Below, one piece after another: positions 4,479 through 56,473 of a DNA stretch of 64,000 nt. Numbering within the stretch: the stretch's first letter is position 1; each line of letters opens with the position of its first letter. This DNA is from an uncultured bacterium (lineage in GTDB: Bacteria; Patescibacteriota; Minisyncoccia; Phycocordibacterales; GWA1-40-21). The stretch is from assembly GCA_963716205.1 (NCBI GenBank), contig OY970290.1:108906-172905 (forward strand), in the 5' to 3' direction. Under the pieces are notes generated by a model. That model worked only from the letters and a program-made list of their open reading frames with translations. It searched no databases and was not told the DNA's origin. A program made the translations under genes and the position numbers.

Positions 4479-4479
4479 A

Positions 4480-13645: not shown

Positions 13646-13747
13646 AATTTAAAAAGTCACGTTCGCATGTTTTAACCTGTTATGTGAAATGAATTCAAAA
13701 AATATTTTTTTGAGTGATTTTCACAGTAGTTTGAGTTGAATTTTTTG

Positions 13748-13858
13748 TTCTGGTGCTTTGTCGCGGGTGTTACACCTGATCTCATTCCGAACTCAGCAGT
13801 TAAGCCCCGTTGAGGCGATGATACTCTCTCTGAAGGGGAAAGTAGCTAGGCGCCGGAA
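13748..13858 (+). rRNA. rrf: 5S ribosomal RNA
   Basis: CCTGATCTCATTCCGAACTCAGCAGTTAAGCCCCGTTGAGGCGATGATACTC matches the conserved 5S helix II-III/loop C region. It lies about 100 nt after the 23S 3' end. Confidence 0.8.
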
Positions 13859-21122: not shown

Positions 21123-21178
21123 TTGATAATCTGATTTTTCTGTTCTATAATACATGTGAGTATTGCCAAGATTTTCAC

Positions 21179-34103: not shown

Positions 34104-34394
34104 AGCAAAGCTGTCTTTTAATAAGGATACGCCATTTTTTTTCACTAAAAAACGGCGATATCCAACGTTGTTTTCTTAAATAACATTTAGGAGGCAGTGT
34201 TCATTTACAACCGAATAGTACAAGATTTAAAGATACATCATTTTTTACATGAGAATGATGTATGAGATAGTGCGAGTCTAGTCTCAAACTCTAAAATCGT
34301 TTCAAGTGAATTAAATAAATGAATTATAGAAATATTATTTTTTATTTTGTTCCGTTTCCGAAACAAATAATTCTTCAAAAGATTATTTTATTTT

Positions 34395-35900
34395 AGAGTT
34401 TGATCCTAGCTCAGGATGAACGCTGGCGGCGTGGATAGGGCATGCAAGTCAAGGGGACCGCAAGGTCACCGGCAGACGACATAGTATAAAATAGGTAACG
34501 ACCCCAAAAGTCAGGAATAGCTCGTCGAAAGACGGGGTAATACTTGATGGTCTGCATTTTCGCAAGAAGGTGCAGTAAAGATTTATCGCTTTTGGATCGG
34601 CCTGTTCGGTATCAGCTAGTTGGTAGGGTAATGGCCTACCAAGGCTATGACGCCTAGGGGAGCTGAGAGGCTGACCCCCACCGATGGGACTGAGACACGG
34701 CCCATACACCTACGGGTGGCTGCAGTCGAGAATATTCGACAATGGAGCGAAAGCTCTGATCGAGCGACGCCGCGTGGAGGATGAAGTCCTTCGGGACGTA
34801 AACTCCTTTTGTGAGACGAATAAGTTATTGAATGGTCTAAGAATAAGAGGTTGCTAAACTCGTGCCAGCAGCAGCGGTAATACGAGTGCCTCAAGCGTTA
34901 TCCGGAATTATTGGGCGTAAAGGGTGTGTAGGTGGTTTTGTTAGTCTTCTGTTAAATCTCTGGGCTTAACCCAGAGCATGCAGGGGAAACGGCAAGACTT
35001 GAGAGTATGCGAGGGGTCTGTGGAACTCATAGGTGTAGCGGTGAAATGCGTTGATATTATAGGGGAACACCAAAAGCGAAGGCAGCAGACTGGAGCATTA
35101 CTGACACTGAAACACGAAAGCGTGGGTAGCGAATGGGATTAGATACCCCAGTAGTCCACGCCCTAAACGATGTTCTCTAGGTTTTCGGAGTATCGACCCT
35201 CTGAGAGCCACAGCTAACGCGTTAAGAGAACCGCCTGGGTAGTACGACCGCAAGGTTAAAACTCAAAGGAATAGACGGGGACTTGCACAAGCGGAGGATC
35301 ATGTGGTTTAATTCGACGGTAAACGAAGAACCTTACCAGGGTTTGAAACCTAGCTGAAGTCTAGGTAGAAACATTTGACGTCTCACAAGGACAGCTAGGC
35401 AGGTGATGCATGGCCGTCGTCAGTTCGTGGTTTGAATTGTTCCCTTAAGTGGGGTAACGAACGCAACCCTCGTTGTCTGTTATATATGTCAGGCGAGACT
35501 GCCCAGCCTTTTGGATACGAAGTTCACGCTTCGCGGACAAGAGGCTGGGAGGAAGGTGAGGATGACGCCAGGTCAGCATGTCCCTTTGATACCCTGGGCT
35601 ACACACGTGATACAATGGCACGTACAACGCGATGCGACGCAGTAAGCTGGAGCAAATCGTAAGAAAGCGTGCCCAAGTTCGGATTGAGGTCTGCAACTCG
35701 ACCTCATGAAGCTGGAATCGCTAGTAATCGCGGGTCAGCCATACTGCGGTGAATACGTTCTCAAGTCTTGTACTCACCGCCCGTCAACTCAAGGGAGCTG
35801 GGAATACCCGAAACCAGCGCTTGTCGCTGTCTACGGTAAGTTCGGTGACAGGGAGTAAGTCGTAACAAGGCACGGCTAGCGGAAGCTGGTCGTGGAATTT
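34395..35900 (+). rRNA. rrs: 16S ribosomal RNA
   Basis: Starts AGAGTTTGATCCTAGCTCAG. Internal landmarks: GTGCCAGCAGCAGCGGTAATAC, ATTAGATACCC, AAACTCAAAGGAATAGACGG, GTACTCACCGCCCGTCA. The 3' region reads AAGTCGTAACAAGG followed by a helix 45 CACGGCTAGCGGAAGCTGGTCGTG and then GGAATTTTTC. No CCTCC was found, so the 3' end is uncertain. Confidence 0.9.
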
Positions 35901-36099
35901 TTCAAATCGAACACGCTATCGTCTGGAAGTTTCTAGATAGATGCTGATCGGTCGGTTTTCAATGCCTCAATTGAGCATTGAAAAGGTTGTATGTTCCTTC
36001 ATAACATACTATGCAGTGGGAAAGACTACACAAAGTCCGCCTTCGGGCGGACTAGGAAACGGAACAAAATAAAGAATGATATTTAGTATACAAAAAACA

Positions 36100-36728: not shown

Positions 36729-36805
36729 GCGCGATTAGCTCAGGTGGTTAGAGCGCGTCACTGATAATGACGAGGTCCCAAGTTCGAGTCTTGGATCGCG
36801 CACCA
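36729..36805 (+). tRNA. tRNA-Ile (anticodon GAU)
   Basis: Cloverleaf by eye: acceptor GCGCGAT/ATCGCGC; D-arm GCTCAGGTGGTTAGAGC; anticodon loop CTGATAA; T-arm CCAAGTTCGAGTCTTGG; the 3' CCA is encoded. Confidence 0.85.
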
Positions 36806-36852: not shown

Positions 36853-36934
36853 GGGCATGTGGTGGAACTGGTATACACGTACGCTTCAGAAGCGTATTCC
36901 GCAAGGATTGAGGGTTCGAGTCCCTCCATGCCCA
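36853..36934 (+). tRNA. tRNA-Leu (anticodon CAG), type II with a long variable arm
   Basis: Acceptor GGGCATG/CATGCCC; anticodon stem TACGC/GCGTA with loop TTCAGAA; long variable arm; T-arm GAGGGTTCGAGTCCCTC; discriminator A. CCA is not fully encoded. Track ORF 36767..37072 is spurious. Confidence 0.75.
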
Positions 36935-38580
36935 CAATCAGCGATGAATCGGCTTTGTAAGGCTTCAAATCCGTTTCTACACTTATATCCCAACGTATTT
37001 TCAGAAAGGGAAAGTTCGGAAAAAATTACCTTTACCATTTCGGCTTTTTCTTCTGAATTAGCCAGTTTGTAATATTCATAGCCATTTTTTAAGAGTTCGG
37101 AAAGTTTTATAATATCCTTTATTACTTCATGCATTGCAATATCTGAAATTTGCTCGGCATCTTGAAAGGTAACGAGCTCATTACTCAATTTATTTTCTTC
37201 ATCTAAAAATGCCTCGGGGGAGTATACACCACTTTTCAGTAAGGTAAGTTTATTAGTTCTTAGATAAGTAAGGTCTTCTCGCACTTTCTTTTTTCTTCTA
37301 TCGTTCTGTTCAATTTCTTTCAATCTTTTATTTTCAAAGGTTGTAATATCGTTTTTAGTCCTAGCATCTATTTCCGCAAGTTCAGCATCAGTAAAAGAAA
37401 GATTTGATATAAGCTCACCAACTTTTTCTTCAAGGAAGTTGAGATTGAAATTTTTCTTTGTATTATCACACCCTTTTGGACAACGAGTACCAAAATAAAG
37501 AATTCCTTTGCGAGTGTAGGGTGTATAGAGACGTTCGCAAACAGAACAGCGAATCATTCCTCTGTGAATATGCTTTATTTTGTCTGTGTAATACAAACTA
37601 GTTTTCTTTTTCTTTAACATCAATTGGACATTCTCAAACAACTCATCAGATATTAATGCCTCATGACTTACACTTGTTAGCCAGACACCTTCATTACCCA
37701 ATATTCTGCCGGTATAGAATTTATTACTCAAGATTTTCTGAAGACTATTAGCCTCTATAATTTTAGATACTTTTTCTTTATTTATTTTCTCGTCATCATC
37801 TTCGGCAAGCATTTCCTCCTTTGTTCTCCTAGGACGCATTGGATTAGTGGTGAATCCTTGTTCTGTTGCATATCGTGCAAGGTCGGCCAAAGACCAGTCA
37901 CCATTAGAATACATTTCGAACATCTTTTTTATAATTGGTGCTCTTATGGGGTCGAATGGCTTATGTTCCATTGTTCCTTCATTTAAGTAGCCTATGGGGG
38001 CTTTGTAAGTGCATACGCCTTTATTTCTCAAGTTCCACGTAGCAATGGTTACTTTCTCACTCGTAACCCTTGAATGGTGTTCTGCAAACATTCCATCTAT
38101 ATCCATGTGTAGTGCACCAGAGCTAGATTTATCATAAGTAGCATAAACAAAATGGACATCAACACCGCTTTTCATAAGTTTTCGTATAATAGTATCATCG
38201 CCTTGATTTCTGCTAATCCTATCCCAAGAAAAACAAATAAAACCTTTGAATAAACCTTTACTCAAAAATTGAACAAGTTTAAAAAATTTTGGTCGTTCTA
38301 TGTGGTACTGGACTGAACCATTTTCAGTAAATGTGAGAACATCATCTGTTTTGAATCCAGAATGTTTTTCAGAAATTATTCCATCAGTGCAAAAACCAGT
38401 AATGGTTAACGGGGCTATGTTGAACCTGTGATTAAAAGCATATTTTGTGTTTTCTGCTTTTTGAATTTTGATTGAATTTTTTTGGTTATCAGCCTCGTCA
38501 GTACTTTTTCGATTATAAATCAAATAATATTCCCTATATTTGCCACTATCAATTTCTTTTAAGATTTTTTCATCAATCAT
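36886..38580 (-). CDS. large serine recombinase (resolvase/invertase catalytic domain, recombinase domain, zinc ribbon and coiled coil)
   Basis: N-terminal YLIYNRKSTDEADNQKNSIKIQ (catalytic Ser in the Y-x-R-x-S-T motif). WDRISRNQGD (the SR motif). C-terminal CSVCERLY...RCPKGC zinc ribbon. The last about 16 codons are read from the complement of tRNA-Leu. Confidence 0.8.
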   Translation of the reverse strand: MIDEKILKEIDSGKYREYYLIYNRKSTDEADNQKNSIKIQKAENTKYAFNHRFNIAPLTITGFCTDGIISEKHSGFKTDDVLTFTENGSVQYHIERPKFFKLVQFLSKGLFKGFICFSWDRISRNQGDDTIIRKLMKSGVDVHFVYATYDKSSSGALHMDIDGMFAEHHSRVTSEKVTIATWNLRNKGVCTYKAPIGYLNEGTMEHKPFDPIRAPIIKKMFEMYSNGDWSLADLARYATEQGFTTNPMRPRRTKEEMLAEDDDEKINKEKVSKIIEANSLQKILSNKFYTGRILGNEGVWLTSVSHEALISDELFENVQLMLKKKKTSLYYTDKIKHIHRGMIRCSVCERLYTPYTRKGILYFGTRCPKGCDNTKKNFNLNFLEEKVGELISNLSFTDAELAEIDARTKNDITTFENKRLKEIEQNDRRKKKVREDLTYLRTNKLTLLKSGVYSPEAFLDEENKLSNELVTFQDAEQISDIAMHEVIKDIIKLSELLKNGYEYYKLANSEEKAEMVKVIFSELSLSENTLGYKCRNGFEALQSRFIADCGHGGTRTLNPCGIRF

Positions 38581-38589
38581 ACTTTTATA

Positions 38590-38793
38590 TTAATATTTTA
38601 TGATATCAAGTTTTTTTATTTTACCATCAACGATAGTATATCCTTCAGAAATCAAACGTTTGTGGATTTTTTTTAATATTTCCCCTAGTTCACCTAGAGA
38701 TTCAACAGTCTCTTTGGTGAAAATCAGCTCATCCCTGTTTACGGGGGGATAACAAGGATTTATGCTTAACTCCTTCATTTTAACAATTTCCAA
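38590..38793 (-). CDS. hypothetical protein (67 aa)
   Basis: ORF only. It lies between the recombinase and the P-loop protein on the same strand. Confidence 0.3.
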   Translation of the reverse strand: MEIVKMKELSINPCYPPVNRDELIFTKETVESLGELGEILKKIHKRLISEGYTIVDGKIKKLDIIKY

Positions 38794-38857
38794 CTTAATT
38801 CTCCAGTCTTAACTTTCTAGCACAATTCTACATATGCAGGGTTTAAACCGTTTTCTA

Positions 38858-40213
38858 CTAAAATATTTTGAGTAGTTCTTCCTCACTAATTCGACCATCT
38901 TCTGCAATGTTCATGACGTTCATATGTTCACTATCGCCAAGGTTTTCATCAATAATACCAAATCTTTCCTTCCAAAAATCAAGTCTTTCTCTGTTTTTAT
39001 TAGTATCAAGAATCCACCCATTACTTGTTCTTCTTGATTTGAGTTGCAGTTTTTTTCTAAGAAGATATCCGATTTTTTTAGGTGATAACATATCTTTAAA
39101 CTCAAGTTCAGTGTCATGATTTATAGCATTAGAAATTTCCTTCATAGTAAATTCTTTTTTGTCTATATCGTGTTCAAGTTTAAGAATAGTAAAGACAATT
39201 TCAGACTCTCTACTCTGACCCCTGTCAGCTATCAATTCTTGGTTATAATTTTGTATAAATTCCTTGAATTTTTCTTTCACCTCGTCAGATTCAATAATCG
39301 AAAGAATTGGAATTGCAATTTGTTGTAGCCTCGGTGTTATGCCACTGATTATGCCTTCGTGATATGCAAGGGGTTTAAAATAGTTTCTAAATCTCCACAT
39401 CAATAATTTATTTCTAATCATTCTAGCTTCTTCATAAAATTCGTCTGGGAGTCTGTGTGGTATATCCGTTCTCAGTATTCCAATACCCATTTCCTCAACA
39501 AGAAATCTACTCTCAAGAGCACTATCACTGAAGGTTTCTCTAGTGCCAACTATTTTTGGTGAATATACATCATATGCTTTTACTTCATAGGTATTGGCAT
39601 CACATCTAAGCACAGACCCACCTTTTTGAAATCCCATATTCAGTATTTTCACAATATCATCTGTAGTTTCGCTTGATTTATAATCAGCTTCATCTAGAAC
39701 AAGAGTTCCACCTATATCATTTAGAATTCTAAAAATTGGTGCTGAACTTGTAGCTCCACCCGTAAATATGGGTTTGTAACAAATTGAGCCAATTGTTCTT
39801 AAAAATCTACTCTTACCAGAACCCAAATCACCCAAAGCTCTTAGATAGGGTACTTCATTGAATCTATCATAAAGCCAACTAAGCATAACGTAATAACTAG
39901 AAATCTCTTCAAATTTTGGCGAGATATCTAAATATTTATGTATGAATACTCTTATTTCTTCAATGATTTTTTCGTTCGTTTCATACTCAACCGGTTCTGA
40001 TGGAAAGAGTATAATATTTTTGGTAATTAAATCACTTCTTCCATCTAGTGGCTGAAATTCACCATTAGAATTTTTTATAACATCAAGTCTTGTAATTTCT
40101 CCATTCTCATAAGATACGAACTCCGCCTTTTGATTGGCTGAGTCATATACCATTTCTACTATCTGATTATTTATTACTAACGATGCCTTTCTTTTTATCT
40201 TGCTATTTTCCAT
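38858..40213 (-). CDS. P-loop NTPase, putative replication protein (D5/VirE/P4-primase-helicase-like)
   Basis: Walker A LGDLGSGKSRFL followed by a Walker B-like LVLDEAD. At 451 aa, its size and context next to the recombinase suggest an element replication function. The family assignment is tentative. Confidence 0.4.
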   Translation of the reverse strand: MENSKIKRKASLVINNQIVEMVYDSANQKAEFVSYENGEITRLDVIKNSNGEFQPLDGRSDLITKNIILFPSEPVEYETNEKIIEEIRVFIHKYLDISPKFEEISSYYVMLSWLYDRFNEVPYLRALGDLGSGKSRFLRTIGSICYKPIFTGGATSSAPIFRILNDIGGTLVLDEADYKSSETTDDIVKILNMGFQKGGSVLRCDANTYEVKAYDVYSPKIVGTRETFSDSALESRFLVEEMGIGILRTDIPHRLPDEFYEEARMIRNKLLMWRFRNYFKPLAYHEGIISGITPRLQQIAIPILSIIESDEVKEKFKEFIQNYNQELIADRGQSRESEIVFTILKLEHDIDKKEFTMKEISNAINHDTELEFKDMLSPKKIGYLLRKKLQLKSRRTSNGWILDTNKNRERLDFWKERFGIIDENLGDSEHMNVMNIAEDGRISEEELLKIF

Positions 40214-40248
40214 GTAATTTTTATATTTATTTTATTTCTTAATAATTT

Positions 40249-40503
40249 CTAATCATTCAATCTATCCAACAATTCTTTTCTAGCTCTTTCGTATATATGG
40301 ACTGAAACAAGCAGTCTTTCATCATCTCTGTCTCCAAACTTATAAAGCCAATCCAATTCTTCTAGGGTCGGAGTTTTGATAAAAACGAATTCTTTCTGGT
40401 CGCCTTTAAGCGGATTTATTCCAACAATTTGTTGGCTATTGGCATACAGAAAAACTGCCAAGTTTAAATTTGTTATTCTCAAATATCTATCATCTATCTT
40501 CAT
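40249..40503 (-). CDS. hypothetical protein (84 aa)
   Basis: ORF only. It is the first gene of the leftward operon. Confidence 0.3.
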   Translation of the reverse strand: MKIDDRYLRITNLNLAVFLYANSQQIVGINPLKGDQKEFVFIKTPTLEELDWLYKFGDRDDERLLVSVHIYERARKELLDRLND

Positions 40504-41260
40504 AAATAGTTTTATTTAATTTTATTTTCAACTTCTTTTACATAAACAAAAAAGGAGGTCCTCTGACCCCATCATTGAAAAAAATATTCGACCAAAGCTT
40601 TGCAGGGGATGATAATGTATTAAATCCCCAATTCTTTATATTAATCTTAATGTTGTGTGTCAGAGGTCTAACGTTATGAACCCCTAATCAATTGCAAACT
40701 GTAAACGAACTTGTATATGTATTATAACATAATCCTTGACAGAATGCAAGGACTATTATCAAAAATATGTATCTTTATGCCAATATTTTGGTAGTATATA
40801 TTATTATACCCTTATTTATAGGCATATTTTAAAAATAATAGGAAAATACCTTTGAGATATATTATACAATAAAATAACCCCTTGACAGAGCTAAAAAGAC
40901 CATTTTTACCTAGATAAGGTCATTTTAATTGGTGTGAACATGTGAACTTTGTGTACATTGTACAGGTAGCTAAAGTGATAAAAGTTTCACTTTCTCCATA
41001 AAAAATATTTACCGCAAAAATACCAATATATCCAACAAAATTAGGCTTTTATTTGAATCTGGACATTGTATATTTGAACTATTTGATAGGTTAACTTTAA
41101 ATAATTCTTTTCCCTAATAAAACCCTCTCGGGGGGTATGTTGTTTAAATATTCTTTTTTGGTGCTATAATTAGCTGACAATTGAATAAGAAGTAATCTAA
41201 ACTAGCGAGTAATTGCTAGCATGATGAAAGGAAACCGATAAAGGATAAAAAACCCATCAT
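40504..41260. promoter_or_regulatory. AT-rich divergent control region of the element
   Basis: Two CTTGACAGA -35-like boxes (about 40733 and 40881). A TGAAC direct-repeat cluster (GTGTGAACATGTGAACTTTGTGTACATTGTACAGG, about 40930-40965). A TGcTATAAT box at about 41162. Confidence 0.4.
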
Positions 41261-41365
41261 ATGGGGCTTTACCTTTATCGGTCATATCGGGAAACTGGTA
41301 TGGATAGCGCAAGCTATCACCCATGTGGTGGGCTTTTTGTGTTTAAAAATTTAATCAAAATAATT

Positions 41366-41836
41366 ATGAAACCTACTATAAGTTATTTTGCTGATGCTTT
41401 AATGTCTTTTGGTTTATTGGGCGAAATTTATTCTGTAGCTTTCGCCTCTTTCTGGGTAGCGGTTTTGCTTGTTGTACTATTTTCTACCATGTTTATTGTC
41501 GGACTTGAGATGGCTATTGAAGACGTAATTTATAAAGATAAACTTAAAACTGCGCAACAAGCAGTTGTTGATGCACAAGGAGCACTTGATGAAGCACAGA
41601 AAGCTGTTGATGTAGCTAAACAAAATTCTGAAGAAGTGAATTTAAAAGCAATAGAGGCAATGAAAGAAATCAATACGAAGATTAGGGATGGTGAGAAAAA
41701 ATTGAATGAAGAAATGGCTATTGATGCTGAAAATTTTTATAAACAAAATCCAAATTTGAAATGGAATCCAACTGATAAGCAGGCAAAAGCTATAAAAGTC
41801 ATTAACGAAACAAAAAAATTGTTTGGAATTAAGTAA
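41366..41836 (+). CDS. membrane protein with a coiled-coil C-terminal region (hypothetical)
   Basis: The track ORF starts at 41261. The internal start at 41366 gives MKPTISYFADALMSFGLLGEIYSVAFASFWVAVLLVVLF (two transmembrane helices), then a heptad-like Ala/Gln/Lys-rich region. The start is uncertain. Confidence 0.4.
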   Translation: MKPTISYFADALMSFGLLGEIYSVAFASFWVAVLLVVLFSTMFIVGLEMAIEDVIYKDKLKTAQQAVVDAQGALDEAQKAVDVAKQNSEEVNLKAIEAMKEINTKIRDGEKKLNEEMAIDAENFYKQNPNLKWNPTDKQAKAIKVINETKKLFGIK

Positions 41837-41841
41837 AAAAT

Positions 41842-42837
41842 ATGAAAAAATATCTCTATATTTTAATTTTTACTTCTCTAATTATTCCAACTATTTCTTT
41901 TGCTGATTCTGGTGCATGTTCATACCATGATGGAGTTAATTGTTCTGCTGGACCTAATGTTTCAGACGGTACAGTTATTTGTAACGACGGTTCCAGTGAT
42001 AGTTCGGTTTTGTATATAAATATGAACGAATGTAATAATGTTCCTCCAATATACTGTCCTAGTTCTTGGACTCAAACTGATGTAGTTAGTACAAATAATT
42101 CTGTTGCTCAGCTTCAACAACAAGCAGACAACAATTTAAATGAATATGAGTCTGTTATAAGTCAAATAGAAAATGGCACATATCCACTAAATCCAAACCA
42201 ACAAAGTCAAATAAATAATTATAAACAACAGACTGAAGCCCTGATACAACAACAGCAAACAGCAAATCAAAACCTACAAAACGGAATGGCGATGTCAAAC
42301 TTTAGAGAAGGAGGTTCTTATTCACCCGACACCTACTCTCAGGTAGGAAGTAGTGCAGTAAATAATCTTACAATCCAAATGAATGGAACAATAGCTTCTT
42401 TGACCCAATCTTTTTTAAATACCGATGTTGGAATTGAAAAAGAACTTTATTCTGTAGAAGAAAATTCAAGTAATGGAAAAATAGGGCGACTTCTTAGTTT
42501 ACTAAACTGTAATCGTACTGATTTAGTTGTTCCAACAGAATCGACTTCAACTATTGAAGTAAATAACAGTGTTTCAGAAAATATAACACAGAACATACCT
42601 ACAACAACAGAGTCACAACAGCAACCTGTTATTGCACCACAAGCAGTCATTCAGTTTTCTCACACTAAAATTCCAACACCACAAGAAGTACAAAATTTTG
42701 GTCAATCATCAGGAACAGAAAGTAAAATACCAAACTTGAATACTGTTACAATGCCACGTACACTTCCAATAACACAACCTAAACCATCTAAATTTCAACA
42801 TTGGTATGATTGGCTAAACCCATTTAATTGGTTTTAA
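41842..42837 (+). CDS. secreted Cys-containing Gln/Asn-rich protein (hypothetical)
   Basis: Signal peptide MKKYLYILIFTSLIIPTISFA. Six Cys in the first 80 residues. A long Gln/Asn/Ser-rich low-complexity region. Confidence 0.45.
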   Translation: MKKYLYILIFTSLIIPTISFADSGACSYHDGVNCSAGPNVSDGTVICNDGSSDSSVLYINMNECNNVPPIYCPSSWTQTDVVSTNNSVAQLQQQADNNLNEYESVISQIENGTYPLNPNQQSQINNYKQQTEALIQQQQTANQNLQNGMAMSNFREGGSYSPDTYSQVGSSAVNNLTIQMNGTIASLTQSFLNTDVGIEKELYSVEENSSNGKIGRLLSLLNCNRTDLVVPTESTSTIEVNNSVSENITQNIPTTTESQQQPVIAPQAVIQFSHTKIPTPQEVQNFGQSSGTESKIPNLNTVTMPRTLPITQPKPSKFQHWYDWLNPFNWF

Positions 42838-42861
42838 AAATATGGTAGTGTGTGGAAATAA

Positions 42862-43737
42862 GTGCTAAAATTATATAATAATATGTTTAATTTTCTACAC
42901 AACATTTTATCAGCTATAGGTACAGCTATTATTTCTATAGGCTTACTTTTCGGTGGAACACATACAGTTCTAATAAAAGCTACTAGCACATCAGATATAA
43001 CTGTTGTAAGCACTTCTACTCCTCGAATTGTAACAAGTACTACAACTACTATCATCAATACAATTCAGGATAAACAAAATTATGAACCCCTTTTAGAAAC
43101 TTTTATAAATGGCAGAATAGAAAATTTTAATAACCTTAATCAATGGATTGCATCCACATCTGAAGTGTTTGATTCAAGACTGGATATGCTTAATAAATTA
43201 ATGTCTAGCAACCAAGCTACTTTTTTAGCAAGTAGTAACCCAACATTTAATTCAATTGGTCAAATGTTTAATCAGTTGTACCTCAATGACGCAAGTACAA
43301 CAAATAGTTATAAGTCACAAATTAATTTTATTGTTTCTGATATAAATTCTGCTATTACAACTCTCCAAACAAATAAAAATAATGCAAAGGGCACGTCTGT
43401 TTCAAAGCAAAGTTTTTTATCAGATGCTAATACACTAAATCAGTGGGATACTGCTTGGAGTGTTGCACAAAAAGCAGTTGTAACAGTTTTAACAAATTAT
43501 AATAACTGGGCAAATTATGCAGATGCTGGATACAATCAAGCATGGTCTTCCACTGATACATTTCTGAATAATTATTCATCAAATTATACTAACTACGTTA
43601 GTAGTAATTATATTCCACCAGTACAAGTAGTAAATTTGAATAATATACCTAAAATGCCGGTCGTTTGTACGTTTAATGCGAATACAAGTTTTAGTGGTGA
43701 TTCGGGTTATACAAATGGGTCTGGTATGTGCCAGTAA
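42862..43737 (+). CDS. membrane-anchored extracytoplasmic protein (hypothetical)
   Basis: N-terminal transmembrane helix (AIGTAIISIGLLFGG) followed by a Thr/Ser/Asn-rich domain. TATAAT directly precedes the ATG. Confidence 0.4.
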   Translation: MLKLYNNMFNFLHNILSAIGTAIISIGLLFGGTHTVLIKATSTSDITVVSTSTPRIVTSTTTTIINTIQDKQNYEPLLETFINGRIENFNNLNQWIASTSEVFDSRLDMLNKLMSSNQATFLASSNPTFNSIGQMFNQLYLNDASTTNSYKSQINFIVSDINSAITTLQTNKNNAKGTSVSKQSFLSDANTLNQWDTAWSVAQKAVVTVLTNYNNWANYADAGYNQAWSSTDTFLNNYSSNYTNYVSSNYIPPVQVVNLNNIPKMPVVCTFNANTSFSGDSGYTNGSGMCQ

Positions 43738-43755
43738 TATTCTAATTTCTCTATA

Positions 43756-44538
43756 ATGTCTGATTTTATTTTAAAATGGCAATCATTAATCGGTGCTTTA
43801 GTAGGAGCCGGCGTTCCATTTGCGCTTTTCCTTCTATCAAAATGGTACTTTGATAGAAAAGAATATTTATCAAAAGTACATAGGATAATTGTTGTTGCAA
43901 TAAATAATCTTATTGATATAGATAAAACAGTAAGAGATTTTTCTGATACACGGTTGGTTCAATTTATTGCTAGAATTGAAGAAGATACGACTCACAATGT
44001 TTACTCCCTTGGACTGACATATTTTCCCCTATTCGCCAAAACACCATTTCCAGATGATGTTATAAATTCTTCTACAATGAGTGGTTATGTGGATAATAAA
44101 ATAATTCAATTATTTTTAATGTCAAAGGATTTTGCATTAGGTGTAGATGATATAAAAAGACAGTTTGAGGGTATATTGGAAGCAAATAGAGTTATTGCAC
44201 TTGAGAAAGCAAACGCACCAGTGATTCAAAATGAATCCTTTAGGACAAATGTTGAAGAATATAGGGCCTTTTTAGAAAGAGATTTTTTTGGAAAAAATGT
44301 TCCCGTTTATCTTAAGGCTCTTGCTACCGGAGGAGTAGCATTACTCAAGTTTAAATCTTTTTGGTTTATAAAGTGGAATTTTAAGTTTAGGCCAGATTTC
44401 AAGTATTTTAAAGATATCCGTGCTTATAATGAATATATTGTCAAAACTCAAGACCGTATAGACCTATTTCTAAAAAAAGAAACTGAAGCAGAAGTAGAAA
44501 GACTATCTTCAAATCTTACCAAATCTTTAGTTAAGTAG
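43756..44538 (+). CDS. hypothetical membrane-anchored protein (260 aa)
   Basis: N-terminal transmembrane helix (LIGALVGAGVPFALFLL). No recognisable motifs. TATAAT abuts the ATG. Confidence 0.4.
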   Translation: MSDFILKWQSLIGALVGAGVPFALFLLSKWYFDRKEYLSKVHRIIVVAINNLIDIDKTVRDFSDTRLVQFIARIEEDTTHNVYSLGLTYFPLFAKTPFPDDVINSSTMSGYVDNKIIQLFLMSKDFALGVDDIKRQFEGILEANRVIALEKANAPVIQNESFRTNVEEYRAFLERDFFGKNVPVYLKALATGGVALLKFKSFWFIKWNFKFRPDFKYFKDIRAYNEYIVKTQDRIDLFLKKETEAEVERLSSNLTKSLVK

Positions 44539-44560
44539 AGATTAAAAAATAAATTCTTAT

Positions 44561-45304
44561 ATGATAGATAATAATTTGATTAAAAAACAAAAAGTAACAA
44601 CGAAAAGGAGACATTCAGTTTCAGAACCACTAGATGAAATAGAACTTTCTGAAGAACAACTAACTACTGCGATTACAGAAGCTACCACTGGTTCTATAGG
44701 TTCTAGTATCCCCATATTTAGAAAAGTGCTTGAATGGACTGAAAGAGTAAAACAAAATACAAAAGAAGAAAAATTAAAAATACTTCTTAAACATTACAGT
44801 GCCCACTTTGAGTCAATTGAGAAAGCAAATGAAACATTTAATTTTTTACTCGGGACACGTTCTGGGCAAGTATTGTTTTCAAAAATCGTCAACCTTTTAG
44901 ACAGTAACACTGACGAAGAAGCGATTGAACTTTTAGCAAATATCTTGAAGAAAATTTCAGATACTGATTTTGAAAAACAATTTGAACAGCATTTATATAT
45001 TTTGAGTCAAATTGACAAATTAACACCACAAGCACTTATTATGTTAAGCAAATATGAGATTTGGAAACAAGTCTCTCTTTCAGGTGGAACTACAACAAGC
45101 AAACATACAGTTCTTGGAGACTGGGATTCACAAGTTGCAAATTTTCTTGCTAGGTCCCTTAAAATAACAGATTCCAATACAGTTTTACGAATAGCCCATT
45201 CATTTCTTGAGTTAGAAAGTGCAGGTTTAATTTTTTTAGATGGTAGTTTTATTAAATTAGCTATTATTGGTGCCGAAATATATCAAATAATAATAAAAAA
45301 ATAG
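44561..45304 (+). CDS. hypothetical cytoplasmic protein (247 aa)
   Basis: ORF with no recognisable motifs. It is the last gene of the rightward block before a 230-nt intergenic region. Confidence 0.4.
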   Translation: MIDNNLIKKQKVTTKRRHSVSEPLDEIELSEEQLTTAITEATTGSIGSSIPIFRKVLEWTERVKQNTKEEKLKILLKHYSAHFESIEKANETFNFLLGTRSGQVLFSKIVNLLDSNTDEEAIELLANILKKISDTDFEKQFEQHLYILSQIDKLTPQALIMLSKYEIWKQVSLSGGTTTSKHTVLGDWDSQVANFLARSLKITDSNTVLRIAHSFLELESAGLIFLDGSFIKLAIIGAEIYQIIIKK

Positions 45305-45534
45305 TTTCTTCTATCATATAGTTTTTATATAACTATAAATGCATATCCAATGAACTTGTGAACATTATGAACGTTAGCATGGTATTAACTGACTTAACTC
45401 TTTAATACTAATTTTTATATCATTGCTCTGTTTGATTAGTTCTGAAAGCCAAGATATTTGCCCACAAATATTTGACATCCTTTCGTGAGGATGCTAGGAT
45501 GTTGGCTCGTTCTTATTATGTTTAAGGGGGCAAA

Positions 45535-45840
45535 ATGTCGAAGCGGAAAAAGATGGAAAATGACTTATTGAGGGATGCAAATCCTTTAATGGTCGAAGCT
45601 CATGTAGTTTCAAAAATAAAAGGGAGGACTCCATTGCCTTACGTGGAAATAAACGAACCGAAAACTCTAAAAGAGTATAAAAATCGTTATGGACACCTGT
45701 CGCTCATCCAAAACTTTTTTCAGGAAAAAAACTTGGAAGGGAAAATTCCACAAAGTTTGGTTCCTGAAAGCATGGCAAAGTCTCCTTACGGAGCTTCTGC
45801 GGCCAATCAATTGCGGAAGCATTTTTCGCCGGTTGGTTGA
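45535..45840 (+). CDS. hypothetical basic protein (101 aa), possibly frameshifted at its 3' end
   Basis: AAGGGGG lies 6 nt before the ATG. A TTGACA-17-TAGGAT promoter is upstream. The overlapping +1 frame (to 45907) continues as ...RRLVEKEGVETVRALRRAENEELVRV and ends just before the terminator. Confidence 0.4.
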   Translation: MSKRKKMENDLLRDANPLMVEAHVVSKIKGRTPLPYVEINEPKTLKEYKNRYGHLSLIQNFFQEKNLEGKIPQSLVPESMAKSPYGASAANQLRKHFSPVG

Positions 45841-45920
45841 GAAAGAAGGAGTTGAAACAGTTCGTGCTCTGCGAAGAGCCGAGAATGAAGAACTTGTCCG
45901 CGTCTAAACATAAGGGCGTA

Positions 45921-45954
45921 CCCAACAGCACTGTGCTGTTGGGTATTTTTTTTG
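45921..45954 (+). terminator. rho-independent terminator
   Basis: ACCCAACAGCACTGTGCTGTTGGGTATTTTTTTT: a 10-bp stem followed by a T-run. Confidence 0.7.
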
Positions 45955-46937: not shown

Positions 46938-46977
46938 AACTCCCGCAAGGAGTTTTTTGTGGTATAATATTTCCCAA

Positions 46978-48750
46978 ATGGATCCCGAAAGAATCACATA
47001 TTTTGGCGAGACTGATTCGCGCAATAAGCGGGTAAAATTTGGCATTAAAGCCAAAGACAGGACCAAGCATATCTATGTCATAGGAAAGACCGGCATGGGA
47101 AAATCCACCGTTCTTGAAAATATGGCCATTCAGGATCTTCAAAATGGCGAAGGAATGGCATTTATCGATCCGCACGGCAACACTGCTGACAAACTCTTGA
47201 ATTATGTTTCCGCGGAAAGAATACATGACGTCGTGTATTTTGCTCCGTTTGATACCGATTATCCAATTTCATTCAATGTCATGGAAGATGTCGGTCCGGA
47301 CAAGCGGCATCTCGTCGTTTCGGGTTTGATGAGTGCGTTCAAGAAACTTTTCGGCGAGGAAAGCTTTTCCGATCGTATGCAGTATATTTTGCAAAATACC
47401 ATTCTTGCGCTTCTGGAATATCCGGGAGCGACGATGCTCGGCATCAACAAAATGTTGACAGACAAAGTGTACCGAAACAAAGTTATTGCCAATGTTACCG
47501 ATATGTCGGTCAAGGCGTATTGGACGCAGGAATATGCAAATTACACTGAACGTTTTGCTCAGGAAGCGATACCGGCAATTCAAAACAAAATCGGACAGTT
47601 CACTTCAAATCCTCTTATCCGTAATATCATCGGTCAGCCGAAATCGAGTTTTGATTTCAGGAAAATCATGGATGACGGCAAAATCATGATTATTAATCTT
47701 TCCAAAGGCAGAGTCGGCGAATCAAATGCCAATCTGCTCGGCTCGATGCTCATCACCAAAATTTATCTTGCGGCGATGTCCCGTGCCGACATATCGGAAA
47801 AAATATTGAAAAATCTTCCGAATTTTTATCTGTATGTGGATGAATTCCAGTCGTTTGCCAATGAATCGTTTGCGGATATTCTTTCGGAAGCCAGAAAATA
47901 TAAACTCAATCTGACCGTGGCGCACCAATATATCGAGCAGATGGCGGAAGAAGTCCGTGCGGCGGTTTTCGGCAACGTCGGCACGATGATTACATTTCGC
48001 GTCGGCGCATACGATGCCGAAGTGCTTGAGAAAGAATTTGCGCCGCAGTTCACCGCGGAAGACTTGGTCAATCTTGGAATCTACCAGATGTATCTGAAGC
48101 TTATGATAAATGGCGTCAGCTCGTTTCCATTTTCAGCGACTGGACTCCCGCCATTTCCCGAGCCGGTTATCTCCTACAAAAAAGAGATTATTGAAAGTTC
48201 CCGGAAGCAATTTGCTGTGCCAAAAATCGAAGTTGAAGGCAATATCCAAAAATGGCATGACGAAAGCAAGCCCGCGCCGAAAATCACAATTCAGCCGAAG
48301 CCATCAATTATGGCAAAAGAGATTCCGAAAAATTTTGAAATAAAAACACCAGTGCCGCCGGCTATCGCAAAAGAAAAACCCGTTTTGAAAGAAATAAAAA
48401 AATCAGTTGAAGAAAATGCGCGTAAAACAATGCCGATTCGTCCGCCGATTGAAACGGAAGTCGGGGAAGATTTTCTGCCACTCAAAGATTTTGCCAAAAA
48501 ATCCGTTTCTCGCAGCCAGAATAAATCAATGAGCAATGAAAATCTTTCGGATTTGAGATATGCTCTCGCTGCGGCGATGAAACAGAAATCGTCAGAAGCA
48601 TCAAAGCCGGAAGAAAAACTAATTACCGAAAAATCTGAAACGGTAGTGAAAGAGAAATCAGAACAGAAAAAAGAAGAACCGAAACAGCCGCATGGACTGA
48701 AGGAAATTTCCGAGCATGATTTAAAAAATATTTTCGGTTCTGAAGAATAA
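46978..48750 (+). CDS. FtsK/HerA/TraD-superfamily P-loop ATPase (paralogue of 5545..8322) with a Lys/Glu-rich C-terminal tail
   Basis: Walker A VIGKTGMGKSTVL, then IDPHGN, YLYVDEFQ and ARKYKLNLTVAHQYIEQ, collinear with the ATPase half of the first paralogue. The track start at 46957 is TTG; ATG 46978 follows a GGTATAAT box by 10 nt. Confidence 0.6.
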   Translation: MDPERITYFGETDSRNKRVKFGIKAKDRTKHIYVIGKTGMGKSTVLENMAIQDLQNGEGMAFIDPHGNTADKLLNYVSAERIHDVVYFAPFDTDYPISFNVMEDVGPDKRHLVVSGLMSAFKKLFGEESFSDRMQYILQNTILALLEYPGATMLGINKMLTDKVYRNKVIANVTDMSVKAYWTQEYANYTERFAQEAIPAIQNKIGQFTSNPLIRNIIGQPKSSFDFRKIMDDGKIMIINLSKGRVGESNANLLGSMLITKIYLAAMSRADISEKILKNLPNFYLYVDEFQSFANESFADILSEARKYKLNLTVAHQYIEQMAEEVRAAVFGNVGTMITFRVGAYDAEVLEKEFAPQFTAEDLVNLGIYQMYLKLMINGVSSFPFSATGLPPFPEPVISYKKEIIESSRKQFAVPKIEVEGNIQKWHDESKPAPKITIQPKPSIMAKEIPKNFEIKTPVPPAIAKEKPVLKEIKKSVEENARKTMPIRPPIETEVGEDFLPLKDFAKKSVSRSQNKSMSNENLSDLRYALAAAMKQKSSEASKPEEKLITEKSETVVKEKSEQKKEEPKQPHGLKEISEHDLKNIFGSEE

Positions 48751-48895: not shown

Positions 48896-50104
48896 TTATT
48901 CCAAGTTTTCCAGCTTTTCAAGAAGCTCTTTCCATTGAGGGATAATTTTATCTACGGAAAAATCGTGAGATCTTTTTTTTGATTTTTCCGCATACGATTT
49001 TATCAGAGCTTCATCATCCATTATTTTTATCAGTCCATTTGCCCATTCTTTTTCAAGAGCGTTGTCATTTTTTTGACGAGACGTGTATATAACGGGTAGG
49101 AGCAGTCCAAAATCGGCAAACTCTGCCTGTGTTATTTGATGAGTTGTTTTCGACAATGATAATTCTTCGCGTGGTCCGTAATCGCAATCCGTTGATATGA
49201 CAGGCAGTCCGCATGCCATGGCTTCAAGAACAACCATCGGGAAACCTTCCCTTGTTGATGAAAGAAAAAATAATTTTGCTTTTGCAAAATACGCGTAAGG
49301 ATTTTTTTGATATCCCAAAAAATATACATCGTATTCGTTTCTTATATCTTGCGTATTTTCATCATGGAAAACATGCAAACCGATTTTTTGACCATGGTGA
49401 ACCAATGTATTTTTTAGCAGTCCTTCTCCCAAAATAACCAGCTTGAGATTTTTTATTTTTTCACTTGCTCTTTGAAAAACGTTTAATAAAATCCACTGAG
49501 CTTTTTCCTCCATCAGTCTTCCGGCAGTTATTATTACTTTATTTGAAAAAATATCTGAATATCTTTCTTCAATATGTTCTCTCGATGCTATTTGTATTTT
49601 TTCCAATTCAATAGGATTGTAGATAACATCTAATTTTTGCGGATTTATTTTTACAAAACTTTCCAAATTGCGAGCTATACCGAAAGAAACCGGTACAATC
49701 ATGTCCGCAAGCGGATAGAGCAGTTTTATAAGAACATAATAAAATATCTTTTTTTTATTTTTAAATGCGTTTGTCAGACCGGTGTGTATGGTAATAACAG
49801 ATTTATTTTTCCAGAATAACTTGGAAATAATATTGACGAAATTTGCCCGCTCGATGAAACTGATGACAATATCATTTTTTTTGATTATTTTTCCAAGCCT
49901 GAAAGCGTACAGGGGGATGAAAATAGTTTTTACAAGAGCATTTGTTTTTGAAGTGTGCGCGCTGAGCGTTTTCACTGGAATATCAACGGTAAAATCTTTC
50001 TCATTTTCGAGCATGATGATTCCATCAGCGATTTTACTCGATAGAATTTGTGCAACCCGCTCTGCGCCGCCAGCCTTCAATGAATTGATCAAGATATATT
50101 TCAT
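48896..50104 (-). CDS. glycosyltransferase family 4
   Basis: EGFPMVVLEAMACGLPVISTDCDYGPREEL is the GT4 E-x7-E motif. Confidence 0.75.
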   Translation of the reverse strand: MKYILINSLKAGGAERVAQILSSKIADGIIMLENEKDFTVDIPVKTLSAHTSKTNALVKTIFIPLYAFRLGKIIKKNDIVISFIERANFVNIISKLFWKNKSVITIHTGLTNAFKNKKKIFYYVLIKLLYPLADMIVPVSFGIARNLESFVKINPQKLDVIYNPIELEKIQIASREHIEERYSDIFSNKVIITAGRLMEEKAQWILLNVFQRASEKIKNLKLVILGEGLLKNTLVHHGQKIGLHVFHDENTQDIRNEYDVYFLGYQKNPYAYFAKAKLFFLSSTREGFPMVVLEAMACGLPVISTDCDYGPREELSLSKTTHQITQAEFADFGLLLPVIYTSRQKNDNALEKEWANGLIKIMDDEALIKSYAEKSKKRSHDFSVDKIIPQWKELLEKLENLE

Positions 50105-51018
50105 ATTTTTATCTTTTTATTGTCCATCACATACAGATAATAAGCAATAGGTGCGATTGCTGGCGATATGATTTTAAGCCACACAATAGCAAGACAAGAG
50201 ATTTGTACGAAAATATTTTTCTTGGCATGAAAAGAAAAACGCAGATAATTTATGAAATTCCTGATTTTCCAAGCGGGATTGACGGGCAGTGAAAGAAATT
50301 CCTTATAATACAACAATGTGCCAAGCGGATTAGCCATTCGCAATCGCAGTGAAGATTTGGAATAGCCGTCTTTTTGGTATTCAACTACCAATAATTTTTC
50401 ATTGATGAAACGGGTTTTGTATTGTAAGCCGATTCTGTTGAAAACAATCGCCTCCGATATGAATTTTTCATTATTGATAATGGGGAAAGGGTATTTTTTA
50501 AAAATTTCTGTTTTAAAAAACCCCCATTTGTCACCTTTGACATTATACACATAGAAAGTTTCTATCCATGAGGAATCAAAAATATCTTTCGGAAATTTAT
50601 CACCTATCAATTGATTATTTCTATCAACACACAGAGACATAATTCCGGAAAATTCCTTCTGTTCAGTTTCCGGAATGCTTTGCCAGTAAAAAATCAGTTT
50701 TTCCAAAGCAGTATCGACACAATAATCATCCGAATCAATGTTGAGGAAAAATTTGCCCTCGGCCTCCTGTACTCCGAAATTAAAAGCCGATTGCTTGCCC
50801 TGATTTTCCTGCTTGAAATATCTGATGGGGATACAATTTTCTTTTATCCATGCAGAAACAAATTTTTCTGTGCTGTCAGTGGAACCGTCGTCAACAATGA
50901 TCCACTCAAAATCTTTAAACGTTTGTTTTTTCAAACCGTTGTAGACGTTCATCAAAAGATGACCTCGGTTGAAGGTGGCTGTGAATACGGTAAATTGATA
51001 TAGAATTTTGTTGCTCAT
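50101..51018 (-). CDS. glycosyltransferase family 2
   Basis: FTVFTATFNRGHLLMNVYNGLKKQTFKDFEWIIVDDGSTDST is the GT2 N-terminal signature. It overlaps its neighbours by 4 nt. Confidence 0.75.
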   Translation of the reverse strand: MSNKILYQFTVFTATFNRGHLLMNVYNGLKKQTFKDFEWIIVDDGSTDSTEKFVSAWIKENCIPIRYFKQENQGKQSAFNFGVQEAEGKFFLNIDSDDYCVDTALEKLIFYWQSIPETEQKEFSGIMSLCVDRNNQLIGDKFPKDIFDSSWIETFYVYNVKGDKWGFFKTEIFKKYPFPIINNEKFISEAIVFNRIGLQYKTRFINEKLLVVEYQKDGYSKSSLRLRMANPLGTLLYYKEFLSLPVNPAWKIRNFINYLRFSFHAKKNIFVQISCLAIVWLKIISPAIAPIAYYLYVMDNKKIKI

Positions 51019-51770
51019 TTTTTGAAATCTAATTTACGCTTGGCAATTATTCCTGCATAGGGAGAAAAGAACGAGTTATTGAAAGGTAAAAACCGAAGCA
51101 ACTTTCCTGACCCATTCAATAATTTTATAATGAGTTTCCCCCAATAATTATTGCCCGCGTCTTCCGCCCAAAAATCAAAGCCTCCAAACCATCCCCAATA
51201 AATGACATCAAATCCTTCTTTTTCTACTATTTCTTTCCATATAAATGGATCCATCGATGGTAGATAGTGTCGCTTCAGATTTTCTTTATCAAAAATGGAA
51301 TGAAGCATTTTTTGAATATAACCCCTAAAATTCGGTGTCGTTATCATCAGGTATCCATTTTTTTTCACTAAGGAAATATGTCTGGCAATAACTTCTTCAT
51401 AATTCGTAAAATGTTCAATAAAACCAAAAGAACAAACCACATCGTAGGTATGATGCATTGCGTATGTTAGGAAATTTTCCTGATAAAATTCTCCAATTTT
51501 ATATTTATTTTCAGCTAGCCATTTCGGCATGTCGATCTTGACTCGAGGAGTTAGATCAATTCCATTTAGAGAATATCCAAGATCTCCGAATACGCTCAGA
51601 TATCTTCCGGGAAAACACCCTACTTCAAAGGCGGTTTTTTCTTCAGTTATTTTTTTAATATACTTTCTTATGAGAGTATGTATTGGATCAAAATTACTCG
51701 GCTTGAAAAACACAAGTTTTTCATACGTGGTATCCCAATGATTTTGATTTGCCAGATTTTTTATTTCCAT
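51015..51770 (-). CDS. class I SAM-dependent methyltransferase
   Basis: Motif I AFEVGCFPGRYL and motif II DVVCSFGFIEH. Confidence 0.65.
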   Translation of the reverse strand: MEIKNLANQNHWDTTYEKLVFFKPSNFDPIHTLIRKYIKKITEEKTAFEVGCFPGRYLSVFGDLGYSLNGIDLTPRVKIDMPKWLAENKYKIGEFYQENFLTYAMHHTYDVVCSFGFIEHFTNYEEVIARHISLVKKNGYLMITTPNFRGYIQKMLHSIFDKENLKRHYLPSMDPFIWKEIVEKEGFDVIYWGWFGGFDFWAEDAGNNYWGKLIIKLLNGSGKLLRFLPFNNSFFSPYAGIIAKRKLDFKK

Positions 51771-51781
51771 TGCCTTGAATG

Positions 51782-52711: not shown

Positions 52712-52725
52712 AAATACTATTTGAT

Positions 52726-53688: not shown

Positions 53689-53720
53689 TAAATTATTTTA
53701 ATCTGTTGACTACAAAAACT

Positions 53721-54683: not shown

Positions 54684-54692
54684 GATGTTTTT

Positions 54693-56469: not shown

Positions 56470-56473
56470 GATT

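Follow-up and report, generated by a model that had tools for sequence, protein, structure and literature searches.

The 64,000-nucleotide stretch of DNA analysed here (the window; contig OY970290.1, positions 108,906 to 172,905, from an uncultured bacterium of the Patescibacteriota) contains an AT-rich block next to a tRNA-Leu(CAG) gene. We conclude with high confidence that positions 36938-45458, together with one copy of a 9-bp core, constitute an integrative plasmid-like element of Patescibacteria (candidate phyla radiation, CPR) that was inserted at this tRNA gene by its own large serine recombinase (LSR). The attachment site of the element, attP, lies within the 3′ end of the integrase gene int, and integration splits this gene and re-terminates it in the antisense strand of the tRNA. 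The backbone of the element comprises int, a small open reading frame (ORF) termed o67, the P-loop gene rep451, a second small ORF termed o84 and a LOOT RNA, while five genes for membrane or secreted proteins form a variable payload. A first-pass annotation, made from the sequence alone, had proposed an LSR-driven integrative element at this locus, and the att sites, the shift in composition, the recurrence of the arrangement in a family of loci and a circular relative bear this out.

Boundaries and composition

The 9-bp sequence TGCCCACAA is present as a direct repeat at both ends of the element and is the longest common substring of the two junctions. Its attL copy (36929-36937) lies at the 3′ end of the tRNA-Leu(CAG) gene and its attR copy at 45459-45467, with host flank beginning at 45468; the resulting extent of 8,530 bp, core to core, rests on this repeat and on a detached piece of int at attR. 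The earlier annotation had drawn the block wider. Its right end, 45950, is about 480 bp too far, as the element stops at 45467, and the tRNA gene with which it began (36853) belongs to the host. To the right of attR the host sequence contains a hairpin (CATCCTTTCGTGAGGATG), a promoter-like site (45472-45500), an ORF of 101 aa (45535-45840) and a terminator (45918-45946).

With a GC content of 0.320, compared to 0.41-0.43 in its flanks, the element is the lowest-GC 8.5-kb stretch in the window. The tetranucleotide distance between the element and the rest of the window is 0.415, compared to a host maximum of 0.249, so that both measures uphold the earlier impression of a block more AT-rich than its surroundings.

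The host tRNA-Leu(CAG) gene (36853-36934/5, plus strand) was identified by ARAGORN and Rfam (58.5 bits). It is located, together with tRNA-Ile (36729-36805, plus strand; ARAGORN and Rfam), just downstream of the 16S rRNA gene, and the B′ half of attB consists of its T-arm and acceptor end.

Splitting of the integrase gene

In its integrated form, int (36886-38580, minus strand) encodes 564 aa. The only Pfam matches of this protein are Resolvase (PF00239, E = 2.9e-12) and Recombinase (PF07508, E = 6.5e-14), and it matches the PHROG integrase family phrog_95 with E = 1e-51. Across 25 homologues the catalytic motif Y22-R24-S26-D28…Q33 and the zinc-ribbon cysteines 345, 348 and 371 do not vary, and Cys367 is shared by at least 90%. 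Within 36886-36936, the last 16 codons of int plus its stop read the 3′ half of the tRNA in antisense, an overlap already noted in the annotation; following a Cys-Gly pair, the final 14 residues (HGGTRTLNPCGIRF) and the stop codon come from the tRNA antisense strand.

Alignment of the 25 homologues revealed two types of C-terminus after a conserved "…SRF..C(D/G)P(T)" segment. The first is a translation of tRNA antisense sequence, which reads GHGGTRTLNPCGIRF in the window and DPTGNRTL…LKRxCPNR elsewhere, and the second is a conserved "xWLSELxxxxxxIxxSIxxL…" tail. This second type is also encoded in the window, at the other end of the element. The minus-strand frame that enters at 45469 encodes ICGQISWLSELIKQSNDIKISIKELSQLIPC followed by a stop codon, which corresponds to the native int C-terminus (…WLSELIKQSNDIKISIKELSQLIPC, stop) and is in frame at attR; the detached 3′ end itself occupies 45374-45466 on the minus strand and encodes the native C-terminal helix, CGQISWLSELIKQSNDIKISIKELSQLIPC, up to its stop codon. 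A tail profile built from 43 intact homologues, with no sequence from the window, was searched against 2,415 six-frame fragments of the window and gave one match, the attR fragment (E = 1.2e-11; next best 0.4). The 30 codons of the detached tail are free of stops and frameshifts, and the tail sits exactly where the composition shift stops. When the int body is connected to this tail through the core, the product is a 578-aa protein ending …CGQISWLSEL…IPC, which aligns end to end, including the last residue, with the 584-aa Int encoded on a circular contig (L126, described below). The overlap of recombinase and tRNA therefore arises because attP is located inside the int gene. The annotation itself had raised the possibility that this overlap is a frame artefact, which is excluded by the discovery of the missing native C-terminus at attR.

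An AlphaFold2 (AF2) model of the intact relative P0030, with a mean predicted local distance difference test (pLDDT) score of 76, shows an N-terminal domain (NTD), a recombinase domain (RD), a zinc-ribbon domain (ZD), a coiled coil (384-510), the remainder of the ZD to approximately residue 545, a linker (549-554) and a terminal helix (557-584). The long helices at 384-510 are flanked by β-hairpins. Foldseek aligned this model to full-length LSR-DNA complexes, including those of phiC31, Bxb1 and LI integrase, with E values down to 3e-17, while solved LSRs are only marginally similar in sequence (best E = 0.004, with a family profile). Int is an LSR by every testable criterion. In the model, the split point GDPT coincides with the low-confidence linker after the last ZD strand, and only helix 557-584 would be lost.

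Integration thus exchanges an amphipathic helix of about 28 residues for 14 residues encoded by the tRNA. In 56 sequences, conservation at tail positions +11 (I), +14 (S), +15 (I/L) and +18 (L) is 84-96%. These positions lie approximately 50-70 bp from the core and crossover, beyond the 25-bp half-site, which indicates that the constraint acts on the protein and that the helix is under selection. Since all canonical LSR domains are kept in the integrated form, the 564-aa protein may still be able to act, and this tRNA-tailed Int could plausibly catalyze excision, perhaps together with o67.

Attachment sites and the geometry of recombination

Twelve sets of junctions were compared, in which the core ranges from 4 to 15 bp. 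The identity block common to all 12 sets is only 4 nt, GTGA (GTGG in the window), and spans the last two bases of the acceptor stem, the discriminator base and the nucleotide 3′ of it; owing to this position, the mature tRNA sequence is unaltered by integration. Crossover is predicted to occur within CCAC (36932-35), probably at the AC that corresponds to the discriminator and position 74.

The P arm has the form core-N-TGGCTTTCAGAACT, which codes for W-L-S-E-L, and its motif TGGCTTTCAGAAC is found at 45439-45451. The tRNA arm has the form core-N-…TCGAAC, where the latter is T-loop antisense sequence. In the P arm GAACT begins at a distance of 20 nt from the core, compared to 15 nt in the tRNA arm, both in the window and in tRNA-Glu loci. 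An outward shift of the zinc-ribbon motif by 5 bp in attP relative to attB was derived from the structure of LI integrase bound to attP (PMC3783163). As judged from these spacings, the att half-sites fit typical LSR geometry with its 5-bp motif shift.

The attP motif TGGCTTTCNGAAC occurs once in the window and is conserved at the nucleotide level across phyla, with the Leu codon being CTT in 18 of 23 intact-tail loci (members outside the CPR that keep the motif are L020, L022, L038-L040, L044, L048-L054, L059-L065, L069, L072, L074, L075 and L078). Use of the universal T-loop as the B′ motif accounts for the shifts of sublineages between tRNA-Glu, Leu, Val, Ala and Ser; the sublineage to which the int of the window belongs (homologues at least 67% identical) uses tRNA-Leu. 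Classic tRNA targeting is the province of tyrosine integrases with long direct repeats. The integration had first been described as classic in this sense, but the repeat is merely 9 bp long and the overlap with the tRNA stems from the placement of attP inside int.

Distribution of the integrase family

More than 900 int homologues were found, and the best 120 of these are 58-76% identical to the enzyme in the window; of these 120, 61 end in tRNA-antisense tails and 43 in the WLSEL tail. When 185,579 species genomes were scanned, 80 int loci were obtained. In 37 of them the 3′ end of int lies inside an antisense tRNA (33 tRNA-Glu and one each of tRNA-Val, Ala, Ser and Leu), 24 feature an intact WLSEL tail and no tRNA, 15 have other tails, and int runs off the contig in the remaining four. 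The overlap is always antisense, and its codon position is constant. Of the 37 loci with a tRNA overlap, most belong to genomes labelled Patescibacteria or as a candidate phylum within this group, and in most of them int reads open into the tRNA, with a few having a stop near the junction. The 24 intact-tail loci are mostly from Bacteroidota and Alphaproteobacteria. The intact-int members, which have no adjacent tRNA and are 49-63% identical to the CPR enzyme, include Bacteroidota, Kordiimonas, Sphingopyxis, Sulfitobacter and Verrucomicrobia.

The detached tail is retained in 13 Patescibacteria loci, on the same strand and at a distance of 5.5-11.5 kb upstream of the int/tRNA junction. In all 11 of these whose junctions were compared, as in the window, the core that precedes the tail is identical to the core at the tRNA end; one example is the 15-bp sequence TTTTTGTGACCCCAC in L018.

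A metagenome scan with a rep451 profile identified contig L126, whose 11,834 bp include a 127-bp terminal overlap, which makes it an 11,707-bp circle. Its genes include rep451, o67 and an int with an intact WLSEL tail, and no tRNA is present. By its gene content, L126 matches the predicted excised state of this type of element. No terminal overlap was found for the short contigs L082 and L084-L086 (carrying P0002, P0030 and P0082). One of these, L085, is a tandem of two elements (1238-9674) in which the older int bears a WLSEL tail that evidently stems from the downstream element. In a complete Nomurabacteria chromosome (L058, CP060229; 10001-16739), a second element lies between int and the tRNA, and the position proximal to tRNA-Glu is held by a distantly related LSR (21% identity). 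A third class of tail (CEEILTLARTYFEQN-like) is found at sites where the same tRNA-Glu has received an insertion of a more distant LSR lineage. These cases suggest that the tRNA half-site suffices for the site to be used again, and that the design is shared by other LSR lineages.

Several loci also contain direct-orientation arrays of core plus tail that lack an int body, each unit of which precedes one or a few genes in the opposite orientation (L037, 3300-6300; L025, 1300-2200; L062, 11650-21300; L053, 14031; L044, 9623; L040, 6683). Their origin by repeated integration into the int/tRNA junction was considered and rejected, as the left arms are unlike the int 3′ end (z-scores of -1.2 to 1.4, with one of 3.3); an apparent similarity seen by eye was dropped in view of these low scores. 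The arrays may be int-less cargo cassettes mobilized in trans, similar to an integron that is run by a serine recombinase.

Partner genes and possible control region

The order of genes behind int, given in the annotation as a small ORF, a P-loop ORF and another small ORF, was reproduced at 38590-38793, 38858-40213 and 40249-40503, all on the minus strand. The first of these, o67, encodes 67 aa by ORF translation (62 aa from the ATG at 38778). An o67 homologue is found directly upstream of int in 70 of the 82 loci searched, across phyla, with the conserved core LSxETLxALxELGxVLxxIHxRMxxEGYxIxDGxI. The gene adjoins int and appears to be co-transcribed with it. No Pfam, PHROG or PADLOC family was found for o67, six homologues searched against Pfam at E values up to 5 gave noise only, and a word-based homology search returned only o67 itself. 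We consider o67 a candidate accessory or directionality factor.

The second ORF, rep451 (451 aa), features Walker A (GSGKSR, at residue 131) and Walker B (LVLDEAD) motifs, along with helical-lid and C-terminal winged-helix regions. It has no match in Pfam, PHROG, NCBIfam or PADLOC, and PDB sequences searched with a profile gave no match even at E = 10. The family comprises at least 675 proteins; among the 120 listed, a Pfam domain was found only in P0138, a relative that is fused to Prim-Pol and the NrS-1 polymerase HBD. A modelled similarity to Orc1/Cdc6 proteins is a lead rather than a classification. With moderate confidence, rep451 can be regarded as a putative replication initiator or helicase-loader of a plasmid-like element that excises and replicates. 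It is also found on a circular contig of 8.6 kb (L145) with a Dam methylase and without an integrase. Elsewhere, rep451 is paired with shorter or more divergent serine recombinases beside tRNA-Ala, Asn, Gln, Ile and Trp (loci within L090-L166, for example L104, L118, L139, L152, L156, L161, L162, L097 and L091). The combination of rep451 with an LSR at a tRNA is a design broader than the present int family.

The third ORF, o84 (84 aa), gave a weak DUF5659-like match that falls below the Pfam cut-off (E = 0.009), and it is conserved in L030, L007, L029 and L023. It is followed by an AT-rich spacer (40504-41189) between the leftward and rightward genes, in which two CCTTGACAGA boxes and GTGAACATGTGAAC repeats had been noted; both are present. 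The boxes (40734-40743 and 40880-40889) are the sole exact copies of CCTTGACAGA in the window, and when one mismatch is allowed the count there is not above chance (5 observed, 2.6 expected). The GTGAACATGTGAAC repeats are located at 40934-40960 and include a GTGAAC inverted repeat, and a promoter-like site (41143-41170) faces the LOOT RNA. From this layout, the spacer is a possible origin and promoter region.

A LOOT RNA in the element backbone

A LOOT RNA (RF03000) was identified at 41194-41318 on the plus strand, with an Rfam score of 88.4 bits against a gathering score of 46.4. To our knowledge, LOOT is an orphan RNA recorded only in (aquatic) metagenomes. It was reportedly introduced by Weinberg and colleagues in 2017; the motif is not taken up in the text consulted here (PMC5737381). 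In the window, LOOT and its hairpin and T-run (41314-41340) head the cargo operon. The first cargo ORF as originally listed (191 aa, start 41261) overlaps the RNA; this start is artefactual, and the true start is likely to be 41366.

A covariance model (R1) built from four copies detected 39 further LOOT copies in int and rep451 loci; the final count is 40 copies in the 162 loci plus the window (L018, L023, L030, L045, L141 and L104 are among the loci that bear one). All copies except one are on the strand opposite to int or rep451, and in rep451 loci LOOT lies approximately 1-2 kb upstream of rep451. The RNA is followed by a conserved CACC..GTGGTGGGCTTTTTG element, with a hairpin and T-run, and 20-60 nt further on by an ORF that often starts MKK. 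In an alignment of 21 copies, which was fitted to the model and thus favours the structure, 95.2% of cells are paired and compensatory changes occur in 34 of 39 pairs, compared to 33-41% paired in slid controls. Judged by this recurrence, LOOT is a conserved backbone component of these Patescibacteria integrative elements. It may act in trans, serve as the leader of the cargo operon or control replication. The orphan LOOT RNA thereby gains a genomic home and a context in which it can be tested.

Proposed mechanism and mobility of the element

We propose a mechanism in which several points are inferred, namely the dinucleotide at which crossover occurs, activity of Int with its tRNA-encoded tail, a part for rep451 in replication, and what o67, LOOT and the cargo do. 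In the circular form, attP lies in the int gene, in the linker before the conserved C-terminal helix, and the gene would encode the 578-aa Int. This protein would recombine attP (int body, core and tail) with attB (T-arm and acceptor end of the tRNA, core and downstream hairpin). Crossover would take place at the discriminator base or within 4 nt of it, and the tRNA would therefore remain intact. Integration cuts int, such that its body reads into the tRNA antisense strand to give the 564-aa form with a foreign tail of 14 residues, and the native tail is left 8.5 kb away at attR. Excision by the 564-aa Int, perhaps with o67, would rebuild the full-length gene, and the excised circle would probably be maintained by the Orc1/Cdc6-like rep451.

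We tentatively raise the further possibility, to which we give only limited credence, that self-splitting provides a built-in directionality switch, whereby direction is set by the state of the element and not by a separately regulated factor. The helix of full-length Int could favour recombination of attP with attB, for example by occupying a site used by o67 or the coiled coil, and the helix-less, tRNA-tailed Int could be competent, with o67, for recombination of attL with attR.

Several observations weigh against this account. No excised circle of this element was found, and the reconstructed attP junction had 0 exact matches in IMG/VR. The circular form found is that of the related contig L126, with its intact int, and not one of the element itself. 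Likewise, attL and attR could be defined by the 9-bp repeat and the detached tail, but protein look-ups found no empty tRNA-Leu site; an exact-protein look-up of the host ORF at 45535-45840 returned nothing on record, and that of RsmI returned one Logan contig, which starts approximately 350 bp to the right of attR and is uninformative on the empty site. A 9-bp repeat has by itself a chance probability of a few percent in 9 kb, and the case for the boundaries therefore depends on the homology of the tail and on the family pattern. The 24 loci outside the CPR keep an intact int, and hence an intact attP, inside large chromosomal contigs. The AF2 model of rep451 is weak (pLDDT 67, with the ATPase core below 50). 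Finally, the split integrase is inactive in the archaeal analogues (PMC8371274).

Some of these points could reflect a trapped island, in which the split has inactivated Int, as in the archaeal "suicidal" integrases, and has left a fixed remnant that is no longer mobile. The absence of a detected circle or empty site for this element and the inactivity of the archaeal split enzymes (PMC8371274) are in line with such a remnant, as is the loss of the conserved native helix from the integrated Int; the stranded-tail arrays in L037 and L025 could then be accumulating decay products. However, the int, o67 and rep451 ORFs are intact, the detached tail is undamaged and the two cores are identical. 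The loss appears, from the model, to be confined to a terminal helix after a flexible linker, with every LSR domain kept. Moreover, 37 species-level loci keep int at a tRNA junction, in most cases with a reading frame that stays open into the tRNA, and in L126 a closely related backbone is circular. We regard a trapped island as improbable, and favour an element that can plausibly still excise.

In the Logan assembly of run ERR11563597 (L081), the contig breaks at approximately 45818. The break may be due to branching of the assembly graph around the insertion, or may have no meaning.

Cargo genes and the non-viral nature of the element

The five rightward genes of the annotation were recovered by translation as an operon on the plus strand (41366 to 45304). 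The first (41366-41836) encodes a transmembrane (TM) segment and a coiled coil, and the second (41842-42837) a protein with a signal peptide that is Cys-rich and then Q/N-rich. The third (42862-43737) has an N-terminal TM segment and is S/T/N-rich, the fourth (43756-44538) has an N-terminal TM segment, and the fifth (44561-45304) matches phrog_15873 (E = 3e-19), whose function is unassigned in PHROG. No defence-system, adhesin or virion family was found among the cargo proteins, which gave only sub-threshold matches in Pfam, PHROG and PADLOC. The annotation had suggested that the cargo might influence host interaction or superinfection exclusion, for which these proteins gave no informative homologues. 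The cargo is not conserved in related elements; L126 carries a restriction-modification pair and L145 the Dam methylase.

Searches of Pfam, PHROG and NCBIfam identified no capsid, portal, terminase or capsid-hijacking module within 36938-45458, which agrees with the earlier reading of the block as lacking capsid, terminase and portal genes, and no relaxase, coupling protein or FtsK-like transfer gene. Together with the existence of a circular relative, the lack of virion genes supports the plasmid-like, non-viral nature that had been suggested for it. A search of the int profile against the 2.9 million contigs of IMG/VR returned only one unrelated LSR (24% identical), and the family is thus absent from this collection. 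An inovirus identity was also considered and was rejected, as the element contains no Zot/pI ATPase and no PF05707-type Pfam match.

A small prophage or satellite with unrecognizably divergent virion genes, for instance a filamentous or membrane-enveloped one in which the cargo genes encode structural proteins, is very unlikely. Its attraction is that the cargo proteins are TM, signal-peptide or low-complexity proteins, with a weak Rz-like spanin match (2.7e-4) beside the match to phrog_15873, and that inovirus-like elements have been reported in CPR bacteria (PMC6813254). The Zot/pI ATPase, capsid, portal and terminase are nevertheless all missing from the search results, the cargo differs among relatives that share the backbone (L126 and L145), and relatives of int are absent from the IMG/VR contigs. 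Lastly, a host recombinase or invertase that merely abuts the tRNA without any integration can be dismissed with near certainty: ORF lists are mechanical and serine recombinases do include invertases and resolvases, but the overlap recurs in 37 of 80 loci in antisense and at the same codon, the displaced tail lies exactly at the end of the composition shift, and the half-sites of attP and attB show the geometry expected for an LSR.

Relation to known systems

The LSRs of phiC31, Bxb1, A118/LI, SPbeta (SprA) and TP901-1 share their domain order with Int, namely NTD, RD and a zinc ribbon with an embedded coiled coil. The short core and the 5-bp shift of the zinc-ribbon motif between P and B arms are likewise shared with LSRs of phages and islands. 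Unlike these, the present enzyme targets the 3′ end of a tRNA, has attP inside its own coding sequence, exchanges its C-terminal helix upon integration and resides on a non-viral 8.5-kb carrier in Patescibacteria.

Splitting of the gene is a design shared with the archaeal SSV-type integrases (SSV1, pTN3, pT26-2), where attP is in the int ORF, tRNAs are targeted and the gene is split and rebuilt, which makes for a compact module (PMC8371274). The element resembles them in having attP in the int ORF, a tRNA target and a gene that is partitioned at integration. A 2021 review described self-disrupting recombinases as exclusive to Archaea and to tyrosine integrases (PMC8371274), and no serine or bacterial equivalent was found in the literature searched. 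In contrast to the SSV-type enzymes, which are archaeal tyrosine recombinases of the Phage_integr_3 family (PF16795), the present one is a bacterial serine recombinase that matches only Resolvase and Recombinase in Pfam, it occurs in Patescibacteria and other bacteria, and the exchange is limited to about 28 C-terminal residues past the last DNA-binding domain. The element is probably a bacterial serine counterpart of the archaeal "suicidal" integrases, split at the extreme C-terminus where, according to the model, the enzyme probably remains active.

Small elements such as pSAM2, SLP1 and the archaeal integrative plasmids also integrate at tRNAs, excise to a circle, carry their own replication gene and lack virion genes. 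The element is similar to these in being small, tRNA-integrated and non-viral with a putative replication gene of its own. pSAM2 and SLP1 use tyrosine integrases with Xis and have FtsK-like transfer genes, whereas here there is no recognizable transfer gene and the putative replication protein belongs to an uncharacterized P-loop/winged-helix family. SCC integrates at the 3′ end of rlmH. In SCCmec, which encodes Ccr serine recombinases and the Cch helicase, ccr is not split, and its gene content and host range differ from those of the element.

These results extend self-splitting integrases to Bacteria and to the serine recombinase superfamily, and they delineate a sizeable family of small integrative replicons in Patescibacteria that had no name before, with more than 900 int and at least 675 rep451 homologues. 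Few mobile elements and genetic tools exist for Patescibacteria, and the compact modules of integrase plus attP are on offer for engineering. The natural exchange of the C-terminal tail also provides an experimental handle on how direction is set in serine integrases.

Other features of the window

A 597-aa ORF (46957-48750, plus strand; 590 aa on the Logan contig) with weak matches to DUF87/TrwB-type ATPases is located just to the right of rsmI, near the element yet outside it. It is followed by a second low-GC block (48896-57772, minus strand; GC 0.35) with glycosyltransferases, methyltransferases and a polysaccharide flippase, which is probably a surface-polysaccharide island. The rRNA genes are unlinked, with 23S and 5S (10296-13858) lying 20 kb from 16S (34388-35907). 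The 23S match spans 3,351 nt compared to 2,925 nt for the model, so that an insertion or intron of approximately 430 nt is likely. Two adjacent giant ORFs of 1,736 and 1,850 aa are found on the plus strand at 15912-26731.

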